This document shows, one piece after another, positions 13,401 through 32,712 of a stretch of 32,712 nt of DNA. Made by a program: the position numbers and the translations under genes. Every line of letters begins with the position of its first letter. Position 1 is the first letter of the stretch. Below the pieces are notes generated by a model that was not told where the DNA came from, ran no database searches, and was given only the letters and a program-made list of their open reading frames with translations. This DNA is from Catajapyx aquilonaris (Eukaryota), in the NCBI GenBank assembly GCA_000934665.2, contig KZ539125.1, positions 1 to 32,712 on the forward strand, given 5' to 3'.

Positions 13401-13484
13401 TGACATAAGCAGAGCCGTATACTAACATATATTAATTAAATTTTTTTGTCAACACAGGATGAAGAGCTTCCCAGTGACAATTAA
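3425..13484 (+). CDS. PHF14: PHD finger protein 14 ortholog, 5'-partial spliced gene: join(3425-3552,3614-3728,3785-3913,8480-8717,8786-8890,8958-9145,10851-11022,11097-11229,11292-11713,11784-11922,12000-12170,12244-12404,12903-13011,13458-13484)
   Basis: All 13 introns are GT..AG with compatible phases; 2237 nt, open to TAA at 13482-13484. Peptides such as [69 protein letters not shown] and KKWHIPPAFSVEFISYYLDRN match PHF14 as I recall it. Confidence 0.93.
3614..3728 (+). CDS. PHF14: PHF14 exon, PHD1 N-half ([30 protein letters not shown])
   Basis: ttttag acceptor, gtacgc donor; PHD Cys/His spacing. Confidence 0.93.
3785..3913 (+). CDS. PHF14: PHF14 exon, PHD1 C-half and start of the following zinc-binding segment (GCYGVTDS...EPWFCEPCKAG...CELCPNS)
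   Basis: tttcag acceptor, gtgctg donor; phase 1 on both sides. Confidence 0.93.
4172..4484 (+). mobile_element. tRNA-derived SINE with V-domain-like core
   Basis: A box TGGCCGAGGGG, B box GTTCGATCC, core GGTTTTCTCGGGGTTCTCCCATTTCCTCCCAC, (ATC)n(ATT)n tail, 13-bp TSD ATTATTGGTAGTA (4159-4171 and 4485-4497). Confidence 0.88.
4428..4490 (+). repeat. (ATC)n(ATT)n microsatellite, SINE tail
   Basis: Read directly from the sequence. Confidence 0.95.
4757..5976. mobile_element. Harbinger-like non-autonomous element, 1220 bp
   Basis: TAT|GGGCTGTATTCAGAGTC ... GACGCTGAATACAGCCC|TAT (16/17 TIR match, 3-bp TSD); subterminal GCACTA/TAGTG repeats; CpG-rich. Confidence 0.8.
6110..6371. repeat. Long inverted repeat: 107-bp arms, 48-bp loop
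   Basis: 6110-6216 pairs with 6265-6371 with about 8 mismatches by manual alignment. Confidence 0.92.
7351..7650 (+). mobile_element. Helentron/DINE-1-like non-autonomous element with G-rich interior
   Basis: TTTTAGACCTTTTTTC..GAAAAAAGTC mini-hairpin followed by a CTGTCCATCTGTCCGTCTGT microsatellite; TCTGTGGACAGGTATCA recurs inverted as TGATACCTGTCCACAGA near 7620. Confidence 0.5.
8480..8717 (+). CDS. PHF14: PHF14 exon, extended PHD ([13 protein letters not shown]...CRTYFHVT)
   Basis: catttaaag acceptor, gtaaga donor; strongly conserved ePHD peptide. Confidence 0.95.
8786..8890 (+). CDS. PHF14: PHF14 exon ([32 protein letters not shown])
   Basis: ttgtag acceptor, gtgaaa donor; completes the ePHD. 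Confidence 0.93.
8958..9145 (+). CDS. PHF14: PHF14 exon (RRRRNWLALH...KALKPPPW)
   Basis: tttcag acceptor, gtgagt donor; in frame. Confidence 0.9.
10851..11022 (+). CDS. PHF14: PHF14 exon (VPTQKMPRLLTTSASACKKLLHKAELMG...KKWHIPPAF)
   Basis: ttttcag acceptor, gtgtgc donor; conserved PHF14 segment. Confidence 0.92.
11097..11229 (+). CDS. PHF14: PHF14 exon, coiled coil (SVEFISYYLDRNMRM...LRDKYDQ)
   Basis: tgacag acceptor, gtaggt donor. Confidence 0.92.
11292..11713 (+). CDS. PHF14: PHF14 exon, linker and PHD3 (ECGICRQLNDQHLLAKCDTCHKHYHLGCLTPPLTRMPKKTKLMG)
   Basis: ttgcag acceptor, gtaagt donor; canonical PHD spacing. Confidence 0.93.
11784..11922 (+). CDS. PHF14: PHF14 exon (WQCSECDKESS...PMSPK)
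   Basis: tctcag acceptor, gtttga donor; completes PHD3 (WQCSEC). Confidence 0.9.
12000..12170 (+). CDS. PHF14: PHF14 exon with a Lys/Arg-rich, NLS-like stretch (KERKEKKKKEKRKRKAEKLKRKK)
   Basis: tttcag acceptor, gtatga donor; phase 0/0. Confidence 0.82.
12244..12404 (+). CDS. PHF14: PHF14 exon, start of PHD4 (TSCDVCHEPGVNDNLV)
   Basis: ttacag acceptor, gtcagt donor. Confidence 0.88.
12903..13011 (+). CDS. PHF14: PHF14 exon, PHD4 C-half (RCDECKRCFHFACLDPPVKKSPKPRGYSWHCADCDPT)
   Basis: tttcag acceptor, gtaagt donor; PHD motif. Confidence 0.93.
13458..13484 (+). CDS. PHF14: PHF14 probable last coding exon (DEELPSDN*)
   Basis: T-rich tract plus aacacag acceptor, phase 0, TAA stop; AATAAA at 13862-13867 downstream. 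Confidence 0.7.
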   Translation, partial: DEELPSDN

Positions 13485-14829
13485 AGTAATGAATTGTCAC
13501 TTCAAATGAAAGACTCAAATAAGCAGAAGTGAAAGGATTTCATAGCTAGTTACTGTAAGTGGATGAAACTGAGTCGCATCTAGGATATTAAACCTCTGGG
13601 TCCCTCTGTAAGGACATTGAGCAAGCGAAAAAACCAGAATTATTTTGTGCGAATAAGCCAAGAAAGGAGTGGTTTTTTGGAACTTCAACATATAATTATG
13701 TAGATGAGCAATATAGCACAATTTTTATGACCTCCTGGCTGCCCCTGGAATGTGCCATTTTCAACACTTCCTAGGGTTTGCCGGTAGATGTCCACTGGAC
13801 ACTTTCGAGGTAGGATACACCTGAATTTGTTTTGAAATATTACTGCAAGAGCAGTGTTGAAAATAAAATTATACAATTTTCATTAATATTTGAAGGGCTC
13901 GGGAGAAAACATGATAACCGCCAGGGAAAAATGCAAATGGTTCTCGGCCTGATTCTGCGGAAACAAATGAAGCACGGAAGGTATCCTCTGGTAGGGAGTA
14001 CCTTCATGAGTATTCGTGAATTTTTTCCCACCTGCAGAGAGAGTCGGTTGCTGGCAGTCAGCCTGTGAGTGACCAAGGGTACTCGGCACCCGTTGAATTT
14101 TCATTTCCTGTGAAAATGACGGAACAACTTGAACAGGGTATGACTCATGACTCGTCACCAGTCATGACAGTGTTCAGGAAGTCGGGGTCACCGTTTCAGG
14201 AGTCCAGAATGCCCTGTGAGGCTTGCAGCTCCGTCACACAGTGGTCTGAACGCCGAAAATCGCAATCAAAAATGTTACCTTGAAAACTGTAGCATGTAAA
14301 TTCATTCTAAAAGTCGATTCATATGTTTTCGAGCTCGCTGGACTCGAATTTGTGATAATTTTGTACCTACAACCTATAGGGTGTATGAAAAAAATTTGCA
14401 AAAAAAAGCACCCTTAACTGTTAGAGGAAGATATTTAATTAATTAGTTTGAAAAGTCCCTGACATCTCTAATTCGGTTTAAATACAGCCTCATGTCATTC
14501 CAATATCATAATCCTACAGGATGTGCCAGAAATTATGCTCCAAATATCCAAAAATTGAACCATAACTGTTCAGGAATAGTGTATTATTGGATACTTCGAA
14601 CAGATTTTTTCATAGGCTCGTAAGTATTTTAATTATATTTTTAGGTAATTATAAGCGTAATCCTACTGGGTGTTTCAGTAATACCTCCCTGTCCACTAAA
14701 CTGCACGAACTGGTTGCTACAAAAGTTCGGCCTCTGTGACAGATTGTGTTGCTTTCTTGTGGTACATCCAGTAGGAATTATCCAGATTCTTGGCTCTATT
14801 ACTTTCACACCTGCATCCCAATAAACTTA

Positions 14830-15393
14830 TGATTTTAGATCAGAACTGAGCAGCAGCCTGCAGAAGAGATTCGTTCGTGAACATTTTTGTGTATAATTAT
14901 GATGTTCTCGAAAACGCTGAATGTCTTAGAAAAACTAAGACATTCAGCGTTTTCGAGAACATCATAATTATACTCATGTGCAATGTTGGTGGCATGTAGT
15001 AGCCTACTAGCCATAAAGCAGCACGCATTTCTATGCTGCTTTTAGGCAGTATTCCTGGAATATGTATGCCTCAATATCTTCCGCTCTCCTCATGTCGCTC
15101 AATATTATGCCGAATCTTCTGATCATGTCTTCACCAATTTCTTTCGTACAAAAATAATAAGATATAGATCGAGAAGTGTCGAACATAGTATTCCAGGTGA
15201 AACTTCAGTTACTTCAGCAGATAACTTGTGGTTGGCAAAGAATCGCCTTGCCGACCCCGTGCATAGACTAAAGCCTGTGTTATTGTAAAATTTTATACCA
15301 TTAGTCATCGTTCTGAACAAAGTAATATCGCTCTGATGATGGTAATCTTAATAAATCCCAACCTTGCAAGCGAGGTGGAATGTGTATTAAACA
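14830..15393 (-). pseudogene. Transib (RAG1-core-related) transposase C-terminal remnant
   Basis: Collinear minus-strand peptides CLIHIPPRLQGW, SARRFFANHKLSAEVT, IGEDMIRRFGIILSDMRRAEDIEAYIFQEYCLKAA*KCVLLYG, YYMPPTLH, DIQRFREHH...CSR...RLLLSSD follow recalled Transib motifs (ARRFF, LIRRF, WYYM..T.HK, KDFRRFREHH, SSDP); stops and frameshifts present. Confidence 0.85.
14891..14973. repeat. Perfect palindrome: 39-bp arms, AAAAA loop
   Basis: GTATAATTATGATGTTCTCGAAAACGCTGAATGTCTTAG-AAAAA-exact reverse complement. Confidence 0.97.
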
Positions 15394-18300
15394 AGAATCG
15401 TGGGGCCCTTTTTCACGACACGATGATATTTTTGTTTCTAGGGTCAAGTGTTTACACTCCCCAACTTGCAATGGGCAGCTAGTGGCAGCTGAATTATATA
15501 TGGCCACTTACCCCTCCTACAGGAGGATATGATGGCAGCAATTTCATGAGTTCCTGGTAATTACTCCCTTTTGGGGGACATATTTTATCAGGTAAACCCA
15601 GAAAATTAGGGTATATAAATAAAATAATTTTTTTGCAATATTATATCATCATCATCACGACATTTCCCTATGAGGGGTAGGCAGCGATGAAGGGAGACAC
15701 AAGCTAATCCAACATATGAACTAAATTAAAACTAGTGAAAATAGAACTATAAGCAACCTGTCCCACCCCCCACCCCTGCCCATCTCAGACGACAGACAAG
15801 ATGAAGTAAGTATTTTTGTAGAGTGATCCTTGGATACAAGAATCACTCTACAAAAATACATACATAATCTTTGTTAATAATACTGCATTGTCTGCATAAG
15901 TGAGTAACATAATCGCATATGTACACATTTTCAAGACAAAAATGACTGGTCTTAAAATGTGTATTTTTTTCTCTCACTTTGATACCCTGTGGTACCTTTA
16001 ATACAAAAGATATGGTCACACAACTTGGCCCACACGTGGCACACATCTATCAGTTTCATTTAAGGTACTTATGAAATTCCAACAATAATAGTCAAAAATT
16101 GATTTTTGATTACGGTTTTCGGCATTCAGACTGCTGTGCGTCGGTAGGTAGCTTTGGCACAAATTGAACGTCTCGGGAGTAAAACATGTTAACCTGCCTG
16201 CGGCAGTGGGCTCACAGGCTGACTGTTAGCAACTGGTGCTCTCTGCAGGAGGGAAATTATTCACGAATACTCATGAAGGCACTCCACACCTACCCACAGA
16301 AGGACACCCCCTGTGCGTCATTTGTTTCCGCAGGAAAAAATCAGGCCGAGATTGTTTTGCATTTTTCACTGGTGGTTATCACGTTTTCCTCCCAAGCCCT
16401 CCATTTAACTATGATTATTGATGGTGCCCTGCATCAGCTTTAGGTTAGTAATTGCACTTGCATCATTATGAAAATAAGTTCCTGCAGAATTACTGAAAGA
16501 ATGCTGGAATAGTTTTTTGAATCACTCATGCAACAGGGGAAGTTGAATATTTTTGGTGATGAAAATTTGAGGTCACAGGATCGACCTCTGTTATGACTTA
16601 TGAGGGATGTATTTCACTCCACTGTTCCTACACACATGATGAAAGTGTGATGCAATTGTGTACATGGACAATGTAGATTGGGAGAAAACCTATATCTTAT
16701 TTTGGAGCTGAAATTCCCACTTTGGAAATTTGTGTGTTGCCTAATATGATCAAAAACAGTGTCAAATTCCTCACACTACATTATTTTGATGATTGTTTTG
16801 AGAATTACACAAGCTTACAAGAAGGTATATGTAGCATGATAGCCCAGTCTTTCTATATGTCATGTCACCATTAGATATTAATTTATTTCCTAATATGCAA
16901 TATAATGTACATGTGGAACCCAGAGGGTTAGTGCACTGGAAGTGATTCCTTGGATAAAGAGCTGATTGCATTTAGTTGTATATCTTGTGAGGGTGAATTG
17001 CAAAGATGAGATGTAGGCTATGGCCCAGTGAGGCTGCAGTTTAAAGCTCGCCTGCAGTTGCAAAGATGAACTTTTTTACAAGGCTGTGGTTGTACTGTGG
17101 CAAACTCAGACCTGCCTCCAAGGTGGTGCAGGCTTGAATCATGGTATGATGTATAAAACAACAGAAATCAGCATCAAAATTAGGAATTTGGCAAATTAGA
17201 AGGTGAATTGTGATATCATCAATTTTTCTAGCCCACATGATAGGTCATGATAACATGAGATCACAGTTATTGGCTCTCCGATTTTGGCACCATGATAAGA
17301 TACAGATTAGCAATAACATTCCTTGGTCTGCAGCACACATGACAGGCAGTAATGGTGCAGTCATCATAAAGCCACATGAGTACACCAGCACTAGTGGGAT
17401 TGGGGAACCAATCATTGTGATTTTGAAATCCTGCTGGTAGGCCAGCTTTCAATAAAATAATGTCAATTGCAAAGCTGAGACATTGGAAAATTGCATAACC
17501 AATTCCTGACTTTGATATTTATGGAAAATAATAATTGCTTTCACATGTCAGGATCTCACCCAAGTACTGGAAGGAACAGTTTGCTGTCCTCTCTACCATA
17601 ATTTCCCTATATAAGAATTGAACATTCATGCTGTGATGAAATGTCATAAACAGCTACTGTAAGCAGTCTCATACCTACTCTCACAGCATGTGGTACAATA
17701 TGCTGTGTCTCCATCGCTGTAGGATGTCAAGACAGGAGAGCTACCTTTTCGAAACCTGATGTGCTGTTGCCAATGTTCCAAAGGCAGATCCCATTTTTTT
17801 ATGTACATTTAAGCTGAGGGTTGAACTTGGCCTAGTGAGACAGGGTTTAAAGACTGGTTCAGAACCTCATCTTTGCAATACACCCTTAATGCCTATCAAT
17901 GTAGCGTGCACCTGACCTTTAAGTAGTGTACATATCCAGTGTAATACTGACATTTCTATTTTGACATAATTATTTGCTAATTTATGGTGTTCTTGTAGTT
18001 GCAACAGTTAGAACATTGCCATTTTTATACTTACAAGGAAAGACAAGATGTGTGTCTGCCAGCTGGCCCGATAATTACGTCATGGGTAAATTGTAGGCTA
18101 GGAAATCATTGGTGAAATTGATCAGTTTACAACACAGGCATTTAGAGGTATGAGAGGAATAAGGAGGCATTGGACTTTCCACATTGCTCCAGTTCACTTG
18201 TGAAGGAGTGATGGCCAAAGTTGCCAAGCAAATGGCATTAACTAAATGGATAGAGTATTGGCTTAATGGTTGGAATGCCAGGTTCATGCCCACCCACTGG

Positions 18301-26270: not shown

Positions 26271-29200
26271 GTGAGTTTTCAATTGCAGATCATTTTTTGT
26301 ATATAAAAGTTGGTGGACAGCCACACACTGGTTCATCTATTTTTAGTGATGTATTGGTGATGCTATGCATTAGATGTCATTACTCAATGCTAGTAGGCAG
26401 GATTGTGCTTGATATTTTAATATGATACTTCATTGGAATGTGTCAATATGCAGGAAACACATTCAGTGACTAAGCTTTTTGTGGTTAAAGAGTGTATTGG
26501 ACAATATGTGGCTTGCTGGTCACTGGCGCCTCAGGAAAATTAAAGCTGTGCCTAGGCAGCTGTGGTATATGAGCCGTGAATATAGTGTCAACAAAAATTT
26601 ATATTTAAAATTCAACCAATGTAAATTTGAAATGATTTCTTGATCAGGGCTCCCAACAAGAGTGGTTCAAGTCACAAAATGTTTCTGAGAAAATGGGACT
26701 TAAAAGTTAATGACATACACTGAAGTCATATACATGTGATCAAATATGAATCTTTGCGGTTCAAATCGTCCAGGAATTTTTCAGCATGACAACCCGTATT
26801 GCACGTGAAAGATGGTATCGTGGCGATGCCAATTTATGTAATTTTTTCCAGTGGCGGATCTAGATGTCGTTGTTGGGGGGGGGGGGGGNNNNNNNNNNNN
26901 NNNNNNNNNNNNNNNNNNNNNNNNNNNNNNNNNNNNNNNNNNNNNNNNNNNNNNNNNNNNNNNNGGGGGGGGGGGGGGTCACCCCGATCACCCCCATCTG
27001 CCACTTAATTTTTCTCATGATTTTTTGTCACTTGAACCACTCTTGTTGGGAGTCCCTCAATTCTGCACATGGAAAAGAACATTTTCCACTAATATGGCCC
27101 CGACTTGGTTTTAATTGGAACAATGATGATGATGATGTGCCTTTGGAAACATTGGGTTTGAAAAGAATTTTAAGTGTCAGGTTCCATGCTGATAATGATG
27201 TGGACAGCAATGTTGGCACAGTTTAGAATGTAAGACCACATTTGGCCTGATGCCAGTATAGTGTTCGGCTACCTACCTGAACAAATAGTCCAGATATGAT
27301 GCCCTTGAAGAGGACTCGGCTCCCTACAATAACTGGCAATTTGATTTTAATTTTAAATGTGTGAAGAAAGTTTTACAGTTCAACTGTACCAATTCCTAGC
27401 ATTCTGTGCCCAATGCTAAAGGTTCATGTGAATTTTGAAAGCATTAGAGTAGTATCATTCGACCTTGTAACCACTTAGGTCAGTTATATCACTTATGAAC
27501 AGAAGGTATGCATCCTGCTTTTGTCTCAAGAACTTCCCACAAGTTGATAAGATTAAGCCAGATGCTAGAGTAAGCCAGATCAGGGCTGAAGTGGGCAGGA
27601 AATGTTTACTACCAAGGTCATAAGGAGACACTAGCTCTGACCACGGAATATGGTCCTGACAAATGAAGTCAAATATTTAAAAACTTTTGAGTGCTTGCTT
27701 AATATGAGAACAGTCCTAGTTTGACCTCTGGCAGGTTAAGATATGCCTACAAAATTGGGGTGCATGTGTTCAACAGATGCTCCAGACAGCTTCCTGTAAA
27801 TCAGAAACTCCCATGTTTGCCCCAAGATGAGGATAAAAATAGGGAAAGTCAGAAGGGAAATAGCAGTTACCACCCACATGGAATTGTCTAGGTTTTTTTT
27901 TAAAAAAAAGTTGCAGTAATATTAACTGCCTTCCACTTGGGTTAAATATAGGCACTTAATTCTGCAAAGATTTTCCATGCTGAAAAGGTTCGGTTTCTTT
28001 TTATGGCAGAATGCATTCAAAATCCTCGACTAGGGCCAAATATTCTGTTATGGACAAGTTTGGCACTTTGTTAGAATTTGTTATTCACCAGTCATCAATT
28101 GAAGGATGTTGCAATATAAATAAGAGGTGTCCACTGGAACCATGTTTGACTTATGATTGTGTACATTACTAGGAAAAGTTATTCTGATGATTGTTTAAAT
28201 TCTTTCAGGGGTTCTGCCATTGCCAGAATTGTTGGCGTCAATGTGAAGAAATTCGATAAGTTTGATGATGAAGTCAAGATGTATGTCTTTGAGGAGATGG
28301 TGGAAGGGAAGAAACTGACAGAGGTCATAAATCAACAACACGAGAACATCAAGTATCTTCCCGGTTACAAGCTACCTGAAAATGTTGTGAGTATTTGACT
28401 TTTGTTTATCGATTGTCATTAAGCGGTCGTCCATAAATTACATAGACACTTTTTTCACTATTTCAACCCCTCCCCTGATGTGTACTTGTATACAATTCAC
28501 TGAAGTATACCTATGCACAGTTGAAGATCTCCTCCCCATCTTTCCCGTCTAGGTAATTTATAGATGATCCATAAGGAAAGGGGCAGGCTGCTAGTGGAAG
28601 TAGCCTTCCTTTCTCATCTTCTGAGTAGTTGTACGGGGTGGGGCAAAAGTCATGGGCAGGTTTAAACAACGCAGCATGGCGTAAGTAACGAACAATTAAA
28701 TTTTAATAAAATTACACTACACAGAGAAAGATATGCTATTTATTGATCAAGATCCTTGATGGATGCTGTAGATTCTTAAATTTAATTTTGCCTTGTAAAA
28801 TGTTGACCTGCCTGTGTGAAGAATTACACCCTTCTGTTCAGTGAGCAGACTACAACTGCCTTGAAAGAATAAGATTATCTAGATGAATTATATTGTATTT
28901 AAATGACGTTCTTATTGTAGGTTGCTGTGCCAGATGCATTTGAAACTGCCAAAGATGCCGATATTCTCATTTTTGTCGTTCCTCACCAATTCATTGATGG
29001 TATATGTGGTCCGATGGTTGGGAAGATGAAGCCTGGTGCCTATGGCTTATCATTGATCAAGGTATGCTTTGTGTGTCTATAGATTATATCATATTTAAAA
29101 ATACGAATACAATTGATAATACAAACATGAATGATGTATTGCAGGGCTTTCAGAAAAAGGATGGTGGTGGCATTGAGCTGATCTCACACATCATTACCAA

Positions 29201-29771
29201 AAAACTCGACATACCTGTGAATGTTCTCATGGGAGCAAATCTGGCTCATGAGGTGGCAGACGAGAAGTTCTGTGAGACTACCATTGGTGAGAGAGTGGAG
29301 ATGGGTCAGGGGTATTTGTTTCATGAGGGTCAGTCACAGGTCACATGATTGGGTTTATTTTGCAGGAAGCAAAAGCAAAGATCAAGGGACAAACCTGCGG
29401 GACCTGATCCAAACGGACTACTTCCGAGCCGTTGTGGTCGATGATGTGGAGACAGTTGAAGTGTGTGGAGCTCTGAAGGTCAGTTATCTTAACATTCATG
29501 GGCAGCCATAAAATGGTTGCTGATATACAAAATTATACAGAACATAGTGGCATGTGGAGCTGGATTTGTGGATGGCCTAGGATCAGGAGACAACACTAAG
29601 GCAGCAGTGATTCGCCTGGGACTGATGGAGATGATCAAGTTTTGCGAGGTGTTTTACCCAGGATCTAAGATAACCACCTTCTTTGAGAGCTGCGGAGTGG
29701 CTGACCTTATCACCACCTGCTATGGAGGGCGTAACAGGAAGGTGTCAGAAGCTTTCGTGAGGCTGAAGAAG
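26230..29771 (+). CDS. Gpdh: Glycerol-3-phosphate dehydrogenase [NAD+], cytosolic, 3'-partial: join(26230-26270,28209-28386,28921-29061,29145-29286,29366-29478,29541-29771)
   Basis: 846 nt = 282 codons with no stops. Rossmann motif [29 protein letters not shown], catalytic-Lys region CGALKNIVA, and [15 protein letters not shown]. All introns are GT..AG. Confidence 0.96.
26849..27006. mobile_element. Nested hAT-type poly-G MITE spanning the assembly gap
   Basis: CAGTGGCGGAT ... ATCTGCCACTT termini; 8-bp TSD ATTTTTTC/AATTTTTC (7/8). Confidence 0.7.
26889..26963. other. Assembly gap (75 N) flanked by G homopolymers
   Basis: Read directly from the sequence. Confidence 0.99.
28209..28386 (+). 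CDS. Gpdh: Gpdh exon 2 (GSAIARIVG...[12 protein letters not shown])
   Basis: tttcag acceptor, gtgagt donor. Confidence 0.96.
28423..28571. mobile_element. Degenerate Harbinger-type MITE in Gpdh intron 2
   Basis: TAA|GCGGTCGTCCATAAATTAC ... GTAATTTATAGATGATCCA|TAA. Confidence 0.65.
28921..29061 (+). CDS. Gpdh: Gpdh exon 3 ([24 protein letters not shown]...LSLIK)
   Basis: ttgtag acceptor, gtatgc donor. Confidence 0.96.
29145..29286 (+). CDS. Gpdh: Gpdh exon 4 ([17 protein letters not shown]...FCETTI)
   Basis: ttgcag acceptor, gtgaga donor. Confidence 0.96.
29366..29478 (+). CDS. Gpdh: Gpdh exon 5 (GSKSKDQG...VEVCGALK)
   Basis: ttgcag acceptor, gtcagt donor. Confidence 0.96.
29541..29771 (+). 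CDS. Gpdh: Gpdh exon 6 ([12 protein letters not shown]...[16 protein letters not shown])
   Basis: atacag acceptor, gtgggt donor. Confidence 0.95.
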
Positions 29772-32712
29772 GTGGGTTTGTAAAGCCATTTTTGAGGCAA
29801 CTGGACTTCACTAAAGTATTTCAAGCATTTTATTAGCCATGTGTGAAATACTAGCGAATGAAGTACCCTCTGAGAGACCAGAAAGTATTCTGAAAATTGC
29901 ACTTGTGTGTGGGATTTTCCCCTCATTCCTTTTGTATTTGCCAAATATTTTAGCACTGGATTGCTGATGATGGGACTCTAAAGAACTTTGACAAAGTAAT
30001 ATCCTAATTTCATATCCGAAAAGTTCGGTTGGCATTGCTGCAAAGGTGGAGTCAGCAGGGAATTCTAGTAAAGTGTAGCTCTACTTGTTCGTTGGTAATT
30101 CATATAATTTTTAGAGCATATATTTTTATTTCTCTCTTACCAAAGCCTACATAATGCAGGCAGCCCTACTTAACATAAGTGGATCATTATGAAACCTTAT
30201 ATGCAAGTCAAAGTCAAAGTAACACAAAACAGTTTTTTTTAAAATCATACGGTATAACTTGTCCATCAATACTGGAGTCACTGGTGTATTCAATTGAGGC
30301 CCTTGCAAGTGGGAAGGTATTCCTCACAAGGTCCAGAAGTGGGGTGCAAATGTCAGTGACATGTAAACAGTGAGGGAATGAGTCTCAGTGGCCAGGTTCG
30401 AGTTGTCTTGTGCCACAATTTCACTCTTTTTATTGCAACTGGTGGCATTTTATAAGTTGCCAGTTTATTTTGTCAATTCTGTAGATTTTTTGTCATGCTG
30501 TAAATTTTTTTACACAAGTCCAGATCTGCCATCCCATGAGTCAGGAGGGATTAGTGCAGGACATGCATGCGACTTTCACCCTTACTAGTTTTTGAGTTAC
30601 TGTGTTTCTCCACGGGACGGCAGAGATCTACACAAATAGAGACTGCCTAAGTCAGGGGTTGCCTGAATCAGCCTTTCAATTCAATGTTCCACCTCAAGTT
30701 CAAAGCAGTAGAGTTTGCGCACCAACCAGATGGTGGTGTTAATGAAGTGTGTGTCATAATTATGATGAAGAAAAATATCTGATATTACTGTATAGTCAAT
30801 GAGGATAGACTCGTGGAGTGAGTGGAGTCCAATACATCAATCTGGCTTTGTCCTTTCCTGTATGTTATGTTTGGTCCTTGGAGTAAGTTGTGTCCAGGTC
30901 TGATTCCCAAACCTATGCACAAGGCTATTGCAGAAGTTCCAAGGCCACCCATTGTGATGCCAGATCCTAAACCCTTTCTTCCTTAGTTTTCTCATACCTG
31001 TTGCATGTGCAGCTGCCCTCACAATATTGGCTGAGTGTCTGGGTGACTTTAAAACTCAAGAGGGTCAGGCAGTATGGTGGTTAGAATGGACTGTATTGTA
31101 GTGGTTTTTACATGATAGGGTGGAGAATGGGATACTCTGGCATTCCAGGTCTCAAACTGCAGAAATTGTTTTGAATACTAAAGATGTCTGCACAGTAAAA
31201 ATGCATGTGTTAGGGTGAAATAATAGCTGTTTGCCCACCATCTTCCAGAGGACTCTTTCAAGGTTGTAAAGTGTGCAAGGAGTTGGTGGGGAGGGGCTGT
31301 TGTCATTATGTCATTATATCCTCCTGAGACCTGAGAAGAATTTTTTAACGCAATGTCAGTTCCTATTGCATTTTCTGAACATGTTCCCAATAAGAAACGA
31401 GAAAAAAATTTTAGTTTTAAAATATCGACAAAAATGGCAACAAACAACCAATGAGAACATTAGGACCCAATTGGTGCTACAAAAGCAGAACGGATGAAAG
31501 CTGAAAATTGAAATACCACTTAATGGATCACTCACATAGTGCTCTATCCTCCAAACAATGTTTTTAAAATTTATTTGTGGTATTCGTGGTAGCAATTCCT
31601 CTCAGAAGACAATTAAAGATAAATGAAATTATTTTTTAACGCCACCACTCCAGGGATGGGGCTTGCTCCTTCCCTTCTTACCCGCTAGAGTGGTACCTTG
31701 CTATTCTAGATTTTAAAACTGAACTGCACAGTGAAAAGCGCATTCCTTATGGGTGTATAGGTACAGGCACGTAAAGAAAAGTCACACCCATTCAGCTAAA
31801 AATGCAATTTTTCGGATGTCCACTTAAATGGACATTTGGTCTCAGGAAGAAAAGAAAATGACCAGTTCTCTACAGCAACAAAAGATTGTCACAGAATCAT
31901 CTTTTCGTAGTTCCTAAGACACATTCCTTGCGAATCCCAGGACATTCACTGCATTGCAAAAATCGCATTCTAAATATGAGTAAAAAAATAAAACTGATCA
32001 GATGAGCGCCTAGCTTCAGCAGCGGAATCCGCCATTTTGTCCGCGATTTAATTTTCGTGGCCCAAGCCAGATATTCGACGCTAGGTGGCTACAGCTATTG
32101 AGGCCAGATTGGAACCATGGGATACCAGCATATTACAGTTCTGTTGGCATCACTGGTTGGCGCCAAAAAAATCTTTTGCTGATGTCGACATATGTCGACA
32201 CCAGGTCTCAGGAGGATATGATAGAACCAGTTATCTGTTTTTCAGAAAGTAACGATACTGAACTTTTGTCAGAAAGTAGCCTTACCATAATTATATGCCT
32301 ACAGTATCTGGTGTTCAAAATAAGCCTTGAGTGGTAGGGATGTAACATTGAACAGAATTCAATTACAGTATGTGGATGAAGAGGGCAACATAAATAGTTG
32401 CATTACTGACATGATTATCAGAAATATATGCTGTGGTGGGAAGTTGTTTGTTTCTTGACCTCCTTTTGAGTTTTTCCAACACACACACTCACACACCCAC
32501 ACAGGATAATGCATACCCAATTTGGGTGCACCACCGGACGGTGACAGGAAATGTTGTCCCCGACAAAATGTCCCCTTGCTAAATGTTTCTAAAATAGAGC
32601 ATAGTGAGACGTGATAATTAAGGTGGAAATGAAGCGACTTGCTAATCAAATGAGAGTCTAGAATTGGAATGTTAATAAGAAGGGCTAAAATCAGGGAAAC
32701 ATACGCGACCGA

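Follow-up and report, generated by a model that had tools for sequence, protein, structure and literature searches.

What is the sequence that lies about 750 bases past the stop codon of a PHF14 gene in Catajapyx aquilonaris, and why does one of its ends begin with the exact V(D)J heptamer CACAGTG? Transib transposases are relatives of the antibody-gene recombinase RAG1, and the initial annotation described the locus as the fossil of a Transib whose ends resemble RSSs and whose 5-bp target duplication is of the CGNCG type. We analysed the whole 32,712-nucleotide stretch (contig KZ539125.1, C2390 in our numbering; hereafter the window) together with the assembly, which comprises 286 Mb in 20,583 contigs. 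The description was borne out by a protein match to HzTransib, by the flanks of related copies and by the empty target site. The element is very probably a non-autonomous, internally deleted Transib DNA transposon that carries a broken C-terminal transposase remnant and was inserted in a CGTCG site of a MITE.

The element spans 14237-16138 (1,902 bases) and contains no open reading frame longer than 80 codons. Its inverted ends, 14237-14273 on the plus strand at the 3' side of the transposase and 16102-16138 on the minus strand at the 5' side, are identical at 32 of 37 positions. The first end consists of CACAGTG (14237-14243), 22 nt and a nonamer-like block, TCAAAAATG (14266-14274), with 6/9 matches to ACAAAAACC. 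The other end consists of CACAGCA, 22 nt and TCAAAAATC, with 7/9 matches. Re-reading the sequence thus reproduced the 37-bp TIRs, the heptamer and the nonamer-like block that had been noticed at first. The spacer is 22 nt at both ends, and the 12/23 asymmetry was not seen. A CAC start and an A at nonamer positions 5 and 6, which characterize Transib ends, were found at all six ends of the family described below. The element is flanked on the plus strand by CGTCA at 14232-14236 and CGTCG at 16139-16143, as originally reported, and the left copy fits CpG decay from CGTCG.

The surrounding sequence is itself a repeat, which was overlooked in the initial annotation. The element is nested in a Sola1-like MITE of about 610 bp with long inverted ends (13892-16402), present in at least 40 copies in the assembly. 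On the plus strand, the left part of the MITE is at 13892-14231 and the right part at 16144-16402, and its own target duplication, ATTT, is found at 13888-13891 and 16403-16406. Identical 4-mers flank 13 of the 20 MITE copies with intact ends (window included), and all of them are AWWT; a 4-bp AWWT duplication is a hallmark of Sola1 according to PMC3845634.

The MITE paralogues made it possible to see the target before insertion. Forty of 68 candidates were scored; 39 remained without the window, and five were dropped to leave 34 with both halves. At the junction where the window copy has two 5-mers, 33 of the 34 paralogues have a single one (CGTCG in 10 and CGTCA in 4, the rest being mostly CpG-decay variants). 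Since the paralogues carry one CGTCG-type 5-mer, the 5-bp target duplication of the Transib is real, and the empty CGTCG site that the initial annotation had proposed to look for in related genomes is present within the same genome. A search of the assembly for another MITE copy in which a GTG end occupies this site, as a hot spot would give, returned one match, the window itself. Contig joints that skip the element were considered as an empty allele and rejected, being indistinguishable from MITE paralogues.

One MITE copy (C1625:11171-11198, loci L039 and L077) contains a doubled CGTCG, CGTCGCGTCG, with no element between. A pattern search of the assembly gave one match to the doubled site, this copy, versus 22 to the single site. 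The doubling is the sole perfect tandem duplication of at least 3 bases among the 34 MITE copies, and it falls on one of the two CGNCG sites in the 610-base host consensus. The copy shows little CpG decay (4% vs about 26%) and has an insertion of about 110 bases. Because it has one derived non-CpG change in common with the window copy, no more than other copies have, the doubling looks like a separate event. We tentatively suggest, with somewhat less than even confidence, that it is an in vivo scar of RAG-like excision by the intron-bearing, CGNCG-targeting Transib clade, with the flanks rejoined without loss or gain of bases as a counterpart of the V(D)J coding joint. The MITE family might then, at the same tentative level, record both the filled and the vacated state of one Transib target. 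This is a single case, and slippage is a possible source of the doubling. If the scar is true, nested repeats could reveal genome-wide how the flanks cut by invertebrate RAG-like enzymes get repaired.

The transposase remnant was identified by protein comparison. When 14800-15141 was read through its stops and compared with the PDB, one of 177,635 sequences was matched at E ≤ 10. It was HzTransib, with an E value of 7.4e-6, and the match spans chain residues 342-454. The comparison of the peptides with Transib/RAG1 proteins that the initial annotation had called for was therefore positive. Its Transib reading was to fall if no such match appeared or if other copies lacked 5-bp duplications, and CGNCG-like flanks are present at each of the six family ends. 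A profile based on the transposase of C3133, another Transib of this genome, was aligned with frameshifts allowed; residues 553-684 were placed at 15254-14833 with a score of 164.7, while the best of 30 shuffles reached 47.6. The score of 15255-16138 against the transposase profile was 33.4, equalled in 5 of 30 shuffles. The collinear minus-strand peptides reported at first accordingly hold for 14833-15254 and do not for 15255-15393 and the peptides further upstream, which scored no better than shuffles. The region 14237-14830 was also tried as coding sequence (score 40.0 vs 35.6 for the best of 10 shuffles) and set aside, being non-collinear with the remnant.

Only the C-terminal 130 or so transposase codons survive in the element, and similarity to the Transib superfamily was found in this part only. 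The last exon (14833-15140, minus strand) corresponds to about residues 570-684 of the C3133 transposase and is broken by a stop and indels, without the catalytic Glu motif. What is left of the exon upstream, including the ARRFF motif, lies at 15206-15254 on the same strand and begins at reference residue 553. Between them, a 65-base gap at 15141-15205 (minus strand) marks an intron remnant at an ITG|IDE site, in which the acceptor AG is kept and the donor GT is lost; the donor is retained in the sister copy on C1318. All four intron-bearing transposase loci that were checked have GT...AG at this same site. The intron remnant had been overlooked in the initial annotation, together with two fold-backs and part of a repeat of very high copy number. 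The shared intron site bears on whether the element could instead derive from a RAG1L/RAG2L element of the ProtoRAG type or from Chapaev. The exact RSS heptamer at one end, the GC-rich 5-bp duplication and an unexplained 380-base segment would agree with such an origin. The PDB search, however, gave HzTransib and no RAG1, RAG1L or 6b40 chain at E ≤ 10, and the intron position is that of the Transib transposases of this genome, which makes the derivation extremely unlikely.

The catalytic residues of HzTransib are D125, D224 and E435, as stated in bioRxiv 10.64898/2026.08.26.747230. HzTransib aligns with the C3133 transposase at a constant offset of 16, which puts these residues at reference positions 324, 436 and 647. 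None of the three is detectable in the element. The first two fall outside the remnant, and the third falls in about 28 codons, including the Glu motif, that were overwritten by the arm which a fold-back duplication (14888-14976; arms 41/42 identical, 5-nt spacer) added. Hence an open transposase of about 500-700 amino acids with D, D and E, as expected of an autonomous Transib, is not present: the remnant has a stop and indels, the Glu motif is replaced and the upstream part is undetectable. Twelve stop-to-stop and four read-through frames from the element had no relevant match in Pfam, for which single frames are too broken. Two short frames and a further read-through frame gave no Transib match in the PDB, and a search of the read-through frame against a large protein database returned 18 candidates, none of which was scored. 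The PF12940 profile found no match in the genome, and its controls likewise gave none.

Among the other internal parts, a subterminal arm at 14274-14832 is common to the sister copies at 77-83% identity and has no interpretable coding similarity. The segment at 15264-15646 is present in three family copies at 72-75% identity, and a coding origin was not demonstrated with these copies and their majority sequence. One sister copy gave a weak hint of the second-Asp region (score 44.0, reached in 0 of 30 shuffles), which was seen neither in the remaining two copies nor in the majority sequence. At 15645-15798 on the minus strand, a piece of a very high-copy repeat that ends in a (GAT)n run was inserted; contig depth of this repeat is up to about 1e5 vs about 25, and it is absent from the sister copies. 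It is likely a retroposon 3' end, and it adjoins the second fold-back duplication (15798-15871, arms 31/35). Both fold-backs most likely arose through template switching in gap repair.

The decay of the host MITE places a bound on the age of the Transib insertion. The window copy of the MITE differs from its consensus by 6.5% overall and by 3.8% outside CpG, with two indel events in about 600 bases. This decay is too slight to account for the transposase damage, so the element was probably defective before it moved. The stretch between the ARRFF motif and the 5' end measures 884 bases, about 190 of which are an addition, and the intact reference has 490 codons upstream of the motif. The C1318 copy is collinear with the element in this region apart from its own insertions, and the C12677 copy over the part it holds. 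An autonomous Transib that was inserted intact and then decayed in place would explain why both ends, the intron remnant and collinear coding pieces are retained, and one fold-back is young (41/42), so that some of the damage may postdate insertion. Such a history is nevertheless improbable, since about 490 codons became undetectable where the host MITE shows 3.8% non-CpG change and 2 indels, and since the shortened layout is common to the sister copies. Deletion before insertion is therefore preferred. The same short 5'-side layout in three copies, together with lesions that exceed the post-insertion decay of the host MITE, points to an enzyme supplied in trans. Since no intact parent was found, we infer rather than observe both the deletion and the mobilization in trans.

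To characterize the family, the whole assembly was searched with the end pattern. Six ends were found, and none with the reversed pattern as a control. DNA searches found partial copies, 72-83% identical to the element, on at least five other contigs, and all these counts of ends and copies are lower bounds. Flanks agreeing at three or more of the four CGNCG-type positions were observed at six of six ends, with exact agreement at four, compared with background rates of 1.4% and 0.07%, respectively, in the window. The genome-wide TIR search suggested initially thus succeeded in building a family of six ends with CGNCG-like flanks and did not find an autonomous copy; none of the transposase-bearing loci has the ends of this family. 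The copies on C12677 and C4620 are both cut off by one and the same inserted repeat at corresponding positions and both have CGGCG, and for these reasons they are probably halves of one copy. The six ends would then probably stem from only four insertion events. The repeat that interrupts both half-copies starts with GGGGAGACTGGGG after TA (L002:1766-1861 and L015:8300-8373) and is probably a single transposon, targeting TA, whose insertion left the copy divided between two contigs. Contigs assembled from the DNA runs (one sample, perhaps the source of the assembly) span most of the element at the depth of its flanks, and no near-identical copy is therefore evident.

Other Transibs in this genome provided a further comparison. 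The same read-through query found six other loci, the transposase frame on C3133 among them; the best are Transib transposases with 43-44% identity (E 3.9e-9). These best matches, on C10220 and C2886, have the same ITG|IDE intron. One end was located in each, CACAGTAG beside CGTCG and CGACG, respectively. The ends are 25/38 identical to those of the element, and blastn detected no DNA similarity; judged by these sequences, they represent a related family and not the parent of the element. Two further alignment gaps on C10220 are intron-like. The Transib on C3133 (L069:1820-5053) belongs to a different family and shares only 22 of 38 end positions with the element. It is 3,234 bases long and looks intact, with CACAGTG at both ends, a perfect CAACG duplication and a 730-codon frame whose C-terminal 661 residues match HzTransib (E 3.8e-131). 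A 325-codon frame on the same contig (L069:4904-5881) starts within the Transib end region and continues past it; it may encode a LINE ORF1-type coiled-coil protein.

These families also bear on the ancestral heptamer. Initially the right end, CACAGCA, had been taken to suggest a CACAGCG ancestor, with CACAGTG produced by CpG decay. Positions 6-7 of the six family ends are TA in three, TG in two, CA in one and CG in none, and the related family has TA at the two ends located in it, which speaks against that suggestion. A CACAGCG ancestor costs four CpG decays and one transition, while CACAGTA costs three transitions and is the better guess, though CpG decay strong enough to allow CACAGCG is seen here (25% vs 3.8%). 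The exact heptamer is in any case unremarkable, because both termini of the unrelated intact Transib on C3133 read CACAGTG. Transibs commonly carry a perfect V(D)J heptamer at an end, and its presence has no special meaning.

The position of the element beside a conserved gene raises the question of a host role. The exons upstream encode PHD-type fingers (Pfam) and match PHF14 (PDB 7d8a, E 7e-41). The probable last coding exon, placed by splice signals at 13458-13484 on the plus strand, ends with TAA at 13484, in agreement with the distance of about 750 bp given initially. A contig of sequencing run X5 spans 13491-13893, and no RNA run was among the sequencing runs listed as containing the locus. 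Further along the window, at 28150-29780, are exons of a glycerol-3-phosphate dehydrogenase gene (PF01210, PF07479). Co-option of the element into the PHF14 3' UTR or as regulatory sequence could be imagined from this distance to the stop of a conserved gene. It is very unlikely, as an AATAAA at 13862-13867 comes before the MITE and the element is heavily damaged. Closeness to PHF14 shows no functional link.

Taken together, the element is a copy without its own enzyme and with no demonstrated host role. By established Transib biology, a DDE transposase would bind the two CAC-ended repeats, excise the element and insert it, through cuts staggered by 5 bp, in a GC-rich target. The enzyme would probably have come in trans from an autonomous relative. 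The element entered the CGTCG site in a MITE copy of about 610 bp, where the duplication of five bases is seen directly.

The element was compared with known systems. HzTransib of Helicoverpa zea (PDB 6pqn, 6pqr, 6pqu, 6pqx, 6pqy and 6pr5) resembles it in C-terminal transposase sequence, whereas the element has a broken remnant with an intron and no detectable counterparts of D125, D224 and E435. Like the V(D)J signals recognized by RAG1, it has an identical heptamer at one end and RSS23-like spacing at both; unlike them, it lacks 12/23 asymmetry, and it has no RAG1 match; nor was a RAG2-like gene seen. Its likeness to V(D)J signals is inherited from the Transib superfamily. In Kapitonov and Jurka 2005 (PMC1131882), the defining features of Transib are ends of 38 bp that resemble RSSs and GC-rich duplications of 5 bp, and many insertions into other transposons are noted. 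The consensus described there agrees with the element in ends of about 38 bp, the CAC heptamer, a spacer of about 22-23 nt, an A-rich nonamer and the GC-rich 5-bp duplication, but it is 3-4 kb long, whereas the element is 1.9 kb with no open transposase. Transib1_SP, compared by its description in the same paper, has a CGGCG duplication and two exons. Ends that resemble RSSs and GC-rich duplications of 5 bp, CGGCG among them, are already published as hallmarks of the superfamily. According to bioRxiv 10.64898/2026.08.26.747230, Hopper/Kodama is a non-autonomous deletion derivative of Drosophila Nozomi moved in trans. Kodama is similar to the element as an internally deleted Transib with 37-bp ends, mobilized in trans; it differs in its abundance, its single precise deletion and its CARTG target, whereas the present family is rare and old, with a CGNCG target. 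Beyond repeat annotation the significance is small: what the locus contributes is a Transib family, small and old, that shows a clear CGNCG target duplication and an intron common to related families.
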